DNA of 36,574 nucleotides from Escherichia coli (GCF_003334335.1 NZ_QOWQ01000043.1); one strand, 5' to 3'. Positions 31,803 through 31,931 are shown, counted from the stretch's first letter. Program-made: numbers and translations. The notes: generated by a model from the sequence alone, not told the origin.

Positions 31803-31931
31803 AAATCTCCAGAGATGTGTTCAGGAGTTAGAAAGATTATTTCTTCTATTCTAGACAAATCCCCCTCTGATTGACAGCATCACTGACCAATCGCAAAGAT
31901 TGCTAAGGCTGCTTATGGCAGGGAGATAAGG

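Follow-up and report, generated by a model that had tools for sequence, protein, structure and literature searches.

Promoter elements and sequence conservation in the spacer between def and dprA of Escherichia coli

The DNA analysed, referred to below as the window, is a stretch of 36,574 nucleotides from Escherichia coli. Its minus strand carries def, fmt, rsmB and trkA, and its plus strand dprA (smf), smg, yrdD, tsaC, aroE and yrdB. These gene identities and their order, which but for rsmB and trkA had been proposed in an earlier note made from the sequence alone, agree with RefSeq, both for MG1655 and for E. coli genomes nearly identical to the window. The start codon of def is read as CAT on the plus strand at 31800-31802, and the dprA ATG is found at 31932; according to the ORF list, with start codons at either edge, the 129-bp spacer between the two genes is exactly as the note had described it. 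Its description as moderately AT-rich also holds (41.9% G+C, versus 49.7% for the whole window), and the TTGACA pointed out there is present on the plus strand at 31871-31876, inside ATTGACAGCATCACTGACC (31870-31888). The features of the region are collected in Table 1.

Table 1. Features of the def/dprA region. Positions are counted from the first letter of the window; a dot indicates that no strand applies.
Feature	Position	Strand	Basis or remark
Intergenic spacer, def (minus) / dprA/smf (plus)	31803-31931	.	129 bp
def (peptide deformylase) CDS, first gene of def-fmt(-rsmB-trkA)	31293-31802	-	ORF list, RefSeq, Yan et al. Suppl. Data 3
def Shine-Dalgarno GGAG, 4 nt 5' of ATG	31807-31810	-	read from sequence
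def 5' UTR, 41 nt, weakly structured	31803-31843	-	published TSS and fold
def-fmt TSS	31843 (NC_000913.3:3433649)	-	Yan et al. 2018 Suppl. Data 1 (PMC6131387)
def -10 hexamer TAGAAT, with C at -13 and T at -14 (GTCTAGAAT)	31848-31853	-	consensus scan, PWM, conservation
def -35 hexamer CTGTCA, 18 bp from the -10	31872-31877	-	consensus scan, PWM, conservation
TTGACA of the earlier note, candidate -35 of a weak dprA promoter	31871-31876	+	sequence, PWM
Imperfect dyad ACCAATC-GCAAA-GATTGCT, containing the CRP-S-like half-site TTTGCGA (minus strand)	31886-31904	.	alignment, covariation
Candidate dprA -10 AAAGAT (3/6; A-11 and T-7 present)	31895-31900	+	PWM; predicted
dprA Shine-Dalgarno GGGAG, 6 nt 5' of ATG	31921-31925	+	read from sequence
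dprA (smf) CDS	31932-33056	+	ORF list, RefSeq

A position w of the window corresponds to coordinate 3465492 - w of MG1655 (NC_000913.3), as verified at both start codons. The spacer is 100% identical to that of K-12 MG1655, and the surrounding interval 31780-31960 is likewise identical base for base. A 1.76-kb query covering def-dprA matched all of the 5426 complete E. coli genomes searched (5426/5426) at 95% identity or better; the spacer itself is present in all 5426 genomes, and of the 5743 E. coli records that match it, 5697 do so at 99% identity or more. Both ribosome-binding regions are kept across Enterobacteriaceae, as CTGGA(G/T)A at the def Shine-Dalgarno and as AGGG(A/G) at that of dprA. 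Directly 5' of the latter a possible small hairpin, CUGCU-UAU-GGCAG, is seen at 31909-31921 on the plus strand; its right arm, TGGCA, is conserved in Enterobacteriaceae; the left arm varies, its pairing being confined to shifted registers.

A def fragment joined to the first 46 bp of the spacer, which comprise the def leader as far as the -10, is found in about 320-345 E. coli plasmid records. In plasmid pN66a (2609-3046) the def copy is a truncated and frameshifted pseudogene, having the tsh/hbp autotransporter gene and IS66 remnants as neighbours. These fragments look like chromosomal scrap captured by ColV-type virulence plasmids.

Sequences resembling a sigma70 promoter were sought by a consensus scan of 31400-32300, in which the sole passing site was, on the minus strand, CTGTCA (31877-31872) followed after 18 bp by TAGAAT (31853-31848). 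The -10 hexamer shares 5 of 6 bases with TATAAT, including the A at position 2 and the T at position 6, and the -35 hexamer shares 4 of 6 with TTGACA, as expected of sigma70 elements at this spacing. By a position weight matrix (PWM), built from remembered consensus frequencies and suited to rough ranking only, the pair scored 9.55, a value equalled or exceeded by only 39 of the 365,430 position/spacer combinations available on both strands of the whole window.

The start site of the def-fmt transcripts is said to have been first mapped by Meinnel et al. in 1993. By SMRT-Cappable-seq, a forward start supported by 460 full-length capped reads, assigned to b3287|b3288, is listed at NC_000913.3:3433649 in Suppl. 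Data 1 of Yan et al. (2018; PMC6131387). The corresponding window position, 31843, is located 5 nt past TAGAAT, so that the predicted promoter leads to a literature-mapped start. A distance of 5 nt is at the short end of the range, 7 nt being usual, and the start is taken with a tolerance of 1-2 nt either way: its published position is possibly in error by that much, or else the discriminator is short. The segment 31783-31843, comprising the def leader and the first 20 nt of the def coding sequence, folds with an MFE of -5.4 kcal/mol (z = +1.31) and is thus less structured than its shuffles.

Occupancy by RNA polymerase has been published for the same DNA. In the ChIP-chip data of Cho et al. 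(2014; PMC3923258), given in U00096.2 coordinates, the peaks RNAP_1594 (3431432-3431782), SigD_1360 (3431394-3431931) and SigS_741 (3431457-3431831) all span the spacer, which is placed at 3431583-3431711 by an offset estimated at about 1978. According to Shimada et al. (2014; PMC3946193), a genomic-SELEX peak of the sigma70 holoenzyme falls between smf and def, and CTGTCA-18-TAGAAT is among the promoters that they give; the resolution of either kind of occupancy data is too coarse to assign a strand. In their Table 1, CTGTCA-18-TAGAAT is listed by smf and a second promoter, TTGCTA-19-GATAAG, by def; judging by strand, the two columns are swapped. The second promoter (31900-31930, plus strand) was rejected: it would start at about 31937, past the dprA ATG, its GATAAG is not retained outside Escherichia, and it is absent from the top PWM matches.

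A C at -13 and a T at -14 favour sigmaS as well as sigma70, and the presence of both next to the def -10 fits the published sigmaS ChIP peak. In the reading that we favour, RNA polymerase with sigma70, and probably also with sigmaS, binds CTGTCA-18-TAGAAT and starts leftwards at about 31843; the product is a weakly structured leader of 41 nt before def, in transcripts that cover def-fmt and sometimes continue through rsmB-trkA. The earlier note had placed a def-fmt promoter inside the spacer and had read the whole as a divergent control region. Both points are supported, by the published capped-RNA start, the conserved -35 and -10 elements and the published RNAP and sigma70 occupancy. The promoter and its start site are already in databases, and the region is in this respect an ordinary, known one: the K-12 def-fmt (fms-fmt) promoter of RegulonDB/EcoCyc, mapped by SMRT-Cappable-seq (PMC6131387), is the same locus, 100% identical, and nothing differs. 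Added here are the conservation of this promoter across Enterobacterales and the coincidence of an opposite-strand TTGACA with its -35. In a literature search for smf/dprA together with def/fmt, only Shimada et al. (2014) was found; PMC12690207 is silent on the promoter. The products of def and fmt act in an essential pathway and are targets of antibiotics; the importance of the present results for the two genes is mostly one of annotation.

Reference genomes were scanned with the Def protein, and 80 loci were obtained. Among these, a divergent dprA neighbour across a spacer of 109-135 bp was found throughout Enterobacterales as well as in a single Vibrio and a single Haemophilus, so that a short def/dprA spacer is a trait of this order and of few genomes besides. 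Many gamma- and beta-proteobacteria of other orders also have a divergent dprA upstream of def, at a distance greater by 500-1500 bp (loci L037, L046, L050, L054-L056, L058-L065, L068-L070, L074, L075 and L078-L081). Because of these extra 500-1500 bp, another gene is expected between def and dprA at such loci; it is probably one for a LysM-domain protein, as V. cholerae VC0047.

The spacers of 31 Enterobacterales, ranging from Escherichia to Providencia, Arsenophonus and Rosenbergiella, were aligned. The block ATTGACAG (31870-31877) is invariant in all of them (31/31), and ATT-c-TAG-a-C (31848-31856) is invariant or nearly so. The def -10 reads TA(G/C)AAT in each of the 31 spacers, with TACAAT in Pantoea and Rosenbergiella, and the -35/-10 pair is located 74-77 nt 5' of the def ATG in every case. 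Not a single indel separates the -35 and -10 blocks in the 31 species, and the 13 intervening bases are freely variable. The relaxed pattern CT[GA]Tnn-18-TAnAAT was found upstream of def at 39 of the 80 loci, versus 0.4% of shuffled upstream regions. Among the matches are Orbaceae; CTGTTA-18-TAAAAT is the form seen in Vibrio and Shewanella, and CTGTTT-18-TAAAAT that of Oceanisphaera-like genomes.

In Vibrio, Shewanella and the Oceanisphaera/Aeromonadales-like genomes CTGT is retained with TAACAG or AAACAG, instead of TTGACA, on the opposite strand; in Orbaceae, too, that strand is other than TTGACA. Since these groups keep CTGT without TTGACA, the conserved element is assigned to the def promoter and is older than the plus-strand TTGACA. 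On this view the invariance of TTGACA across Enterobacterales is explained by the def promoter. The constraint extends to those bases of the def -35 that depart from the consensus (a C at position 1, a T at position 4) and to the flanking A31870, T31871, A31879 and T31880, all of which are invariant or nearly so in the 31 species. For these bases plain promoter function falls short as a full explanation; use of both strands, or a bound factor, would suffice.

The earlier note had read TTGACA as oriented toward dprA. The hexamer is infrequent in this DNA: the 36.6-kb window holds 9 copies on both strands, versus 23.8 expected from dinucleotide-preserving shuffles, and a count of at least 9 was reached in 100 of 100 shuffles. 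With so few copies in the window, its presence within a given 129 bp is unlikely to be due to chance. Of its 6 bp, 5 are shared with the def -35, CTGTCA, on the opposite strand, and a def -10 accompanies it at the fixed spacing of 18 bp in all species. On the plus strand, TTGACA-18-AAAGAT has a PWM score of 10.05, equalled or exceeded by only 20 combinations in the window; the -35 contributes 8.4 to this score and the -10 only 1.6. The quality of the -10 was evaluated by fixing TTGACA, shuffling the downstream sequence and taking the best -10 at 15-19 bp: AAAGAT was matched or beaten by 18% of the shuffles in E. coli, and the best partner by 41-84% of them in most genera outside Enterobacteriaceae. 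Of the 16 Enterobacteriaceae-type spacers, 15 retain the A-11 and T-7 of AAAGAT (or AAGGAT), that of the MAG L009 being the one that does not; the other families lack this -10.

A weak constitutive dprA promoter, with a predicted start at about 31907 (MG1655 about 3433585), is therefore plausible, from the sequence, in E. coli and close relatives, and it cannot account for the order-wide invariance of the block. On present evidence the note gave TTGACA to the wrong strand, in view of the overlap of 5 of 6 bp with the def -35, the chance-level -10 and the lack of TTGACA in Vibrio, Shewanella and Aeromonadales-like genomes. The reading given in the earlier note is thus partly supported: its observation is right and its interpretation half right, with a def promoter in the spacer and, for TTGACA, a plausible role at dprA; its statement that both promoters must be there is an assumption. 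More generally, orientation does not by itself tell to which gene a perfect TTGACA in a divergent spacer belongs; in this case conservation points to the promoter on the opposite strand.

Taken jointly, the data are best explained, and we think it likely, by a spacer made up of the def-fmt promoter and leader region plus the dprA ribosome-binding region, in which TTGACA probably serves also as the -35 of a weak dprA promoter. The dprA promoter, TTGACA-18-AAAGAT, would then be placed back to back with that of def and would give a leader of about 25 nt. Polymerases heading in the two directions would contend for a single stretch of -35 DNA; their occupancy would be mutually exclusive, the def promoter being the stronger. 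As an RNAP footprint extends roughly from -55 to +20, polymerases at the mapped start (31843) and at the predicted one (31907), about 64 bp apart, would have footprints overlapping by about 47 bp.

A stronger form of the same arrangement makes ATTGACAG(Y)AT a shared -35 module, 7 bp of which are used on opposite strands, with expression of dprA-smg-yrdD-tsaC inverse to the occupancy of the def-fmt promoter and possibly with a factor on the CCAAT dyad. Such a double constraint would explain why the non-consensus bases are unchanged throughout Enterobacterales. We hold this form to be tentative and, on the whole, rather doubtful; if true, competition for a shared -35 would be a minor example of promoter interference, with low basal expression of a competence protein beside a housekeeping operon.

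Back-to-back pairs of divergent promoters are reportedly one of the classes distinguished by Beck & Warren in 1988. The region resembles them in its short spacer, in having the elements between the two starts, in the predicted separation of about 64 bp and in the overlap of the -35 hexamers, and differs from them in that only the def promoter is demonstrated, the second one being a prediction with a weak -10. In the bidirectional promoters described by Warman, Grainger and co-workers (PMC12825309; bioRxiv 10.1101/2020.01.31.928960), pseudo-symmetric -10 elements overlap and the starts are typically 18, 10 or 23 bp apart. The likeness consists in one stretch of DNA readable either way, one orientation excluding the other; here, however, the shared element is a -35, not a -10, and the predicted distance is about 64 bp instead of 10-23 bp. 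No plus-strand -10-like hexamer with a usable -35 was found overlapping TAGAAT (best PWM score 3.4 or less), and the def/dprA spacer is not named in the main text of that work (PMC12825309). The region is at most a back-to-back pair with overlapping -35 hexamers.

A different origin of dprA transcription can be envisaged in its kinship with competence genes. Sinha et al. are said to have found, in 2009, that the E. coli Sxy/CRP-S regulon includes all competence homologues; on that ground dprA would presumably have an activator-dependent promoter instead of, or besides, TTGACA-18-AAAGAT. In this case CRP and Sxy (TfoX) would act at a TGCGA-type site at about 31877-31898, under competence-inducing conditions only, and TTGACA would be irrelevant to dprA. 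As shown by Cameron & Redfield (2006; PMC1635313), the E. coli orthologues of competence genes carry CRP-S sites of low affinity, which have TGCGA-N6-TCGCA as their core and depend on Sxy as well as on CRP and cAMP. The same paper describes CRP-S motifs obtained by footprinting 33 promoters of competence orthologues in Enterobacteriaceae, dprA being among the orthologues, and a motif with a weak left half in the Vibrio VC0047-dprA promoter.

The def/dprA spacer shares with such promoters the orthology of dprA to a CRP-S-regulated gene of H. influenzae and one perfect half-site, CTTTGCGAT, on the minus strand (TTTGCGA, corresponding to TCGCAAA at 31890-31896 on the plus strand). No CRP-S core with up to 3 mismatches was found in 31803-31931. 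The best 22-mer of the spacer, CTTTGCGATTGGTCAGTGATGC, has 4 mismatches in the 10 core positions, and its second half-site is wrong at 4 of 5. Degeneracy as such is no obstacle, as the best cores of the ppdD and hofM promoters, validated experimentally (PMC1635313) and used to calibrate the 22-mer scan, have 2 and 3 mismatches of 10. Placement is a further difficulty: the centre of the candidate is 44 bp 5' of the dprA ATG, so that a class II arrangement (-41.5) would start about 3 nt before the ATG and would exclude the conserved Shine-Dalgarno, and no -10 is found at that position. Neither a 22-bp site with the CRP-S core nor one centred at about -41.5 or -61.5 from a usable start was found in the spacer, as the start would fall 3 nt 5' of the ATG or within the ORF. 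Unlike CRP-S promoters, the spacer has a site lacking its second half, ill-placed with respect to the ATG, and the half-site is unconserved outside Enterobacteriaceae; TGCGA is not retained in Yersinia, Serratia, Rahnella and Pectobacterium, where TTCAATTGG or TGCAATTGG is read. A CRP-S/Sxy site was rejected as the main explanation, being a lone, badly placed and unconserved half-site. A CRP-S promoter in the spacer is possible, the sequence giving no support to it, and we judge dprA control of this kind to be unlikely.

The same half-site falls within the imperfect dyad at 31886-31904. Enterobacteriaceae, Yersinia and Serratia all have the dyad, a C:G to T:A change occurring symmetrically in both arms, and the Serratia version (ACCAATT-GCACG-AATTGGT) has no mismatch. 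In 28 species compared, its arms pair in 72% of the cells, with CG to UA at one pair in 7 sequences. With this pairing and with CG to UA changes at only one pair, the dyad is too weak to be named a hairpin or operator; it is lost in several genera.

A putative factor could regulate def-fmt, dprA or both through an operator made of the invariant block, (GAT)GCTGTCAAT, and/or of the dyad, CCAATYG-N3-CRATTGG. The invariant non-consensus -35 bases and their flanks exceed the normal needs of a -35 box with 4 of 6 matches, and the dyad, whose centre is some 52 bp 5' of the def start and which covers the candidate dprA -10, could by its sequence be a candidate operator, its symmetric change being kept in the three groups named above. 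Two opposite-strand promoters sharing the block would equally freeze its positions, however, and the dyad is not conserved across the order. Of the known motifs, that of CRP-S fails, and those of PurR, CytR, PhoB, LexA, MetJ, sigma32, sigmaE and sigma54, compared by eye, are out of register or unconserved. Expression of fmt was reportedly constant across growth rates in the work of Meinnel et al. in 1993, which speaks against elaborate regulation. Regulation through such an operator seems to us improbable.

It could also be supposed that the spacer holds no dprA promoter, and that dprA transcripts start inside def, antisense to it, and read through, the dyad being part of a long leader. The SMRT-Cappable-seq transcripts (PMC6131387) require of the smf start that it be upstream of the dprA ATG, and the dyad shows some two-sided changes, at the one pair already mentioned. 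A CRP-S-like core with 2 mismatches, TGCGAAGCCGCTCGTC (31757-31772, plus strand), is present inside def, 167 nt 5' of the dprA ATG. Cores of this kind are common by chance, as 140 matches with up to 3 mismatches are found in the window versus 168 expected. TGCGAAGCCGCTCGTC overlaps the def codons for DERLRK, and because of this overlap its conservation is uninterpretable. No plus-strand site inside def passes the sigma70 consensus scan, the best PWM score there being 2.9, versus 10.05 for the candidate in the spacer. The dyad hairpin is weak (-5.1 kcal/mol, z = -0.91), pairs in no more than the 72% of cells given above, is lost in Pectobacterium, Brenneria, Photorhabdus and others, and matches no Rfam family. 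A start inside def is accordingly held to be very improbable. The reading of the spacer as an RNA element or leader was rejected, since the Rfam covariance models gave 0 matches at E <= 1 over 31200-32400 and no fold did better than its shuffles (z = +1.31 for the def leader, +0.09 for the putative dprA leader and -0.91 for the dyad).

In Suppl. Data 3 of Yan et al. (PMC6131387), the RegulonDB unit b4473 (smf) is extended by full-length capped reads to b4473|b3284|b3283|b3282 (smf-smg-yrdD-tsaC), a second unit covers b3284..b3280, from smg to yrdB, and def-fmt transcripts reach rsmB-trkA. Because capped reads fully cover smf-smg-yrdD-tsaC, a start 5' of the dprA ATG exists; because one class of capped transcripts begins with smg, the start of that unit is placed inside dprA. 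Neither gene string is thus controlled from the spacer alone. The genes smg and yrdD, together with tsaC, which is essential, and aroE, would have a dprA-internal promoter, and tsaC and aroE, downstream of dprA, depend on more than the def/dprA spacer.

The strongest sigma70-like match downstream of the spacer is TTGCCA-17-TAACGT, located inside dprA at 32853-32881 on the plus strand (PWM score 10.67). Its predicted start, at about 32888, is 140 nt 5' of the smg start at 33028 and fits the unit beginning with smg. The end of dprA (33056) and the start of smg (33028) overlap by 29 nt, which suggests translational coupling between the two genes.
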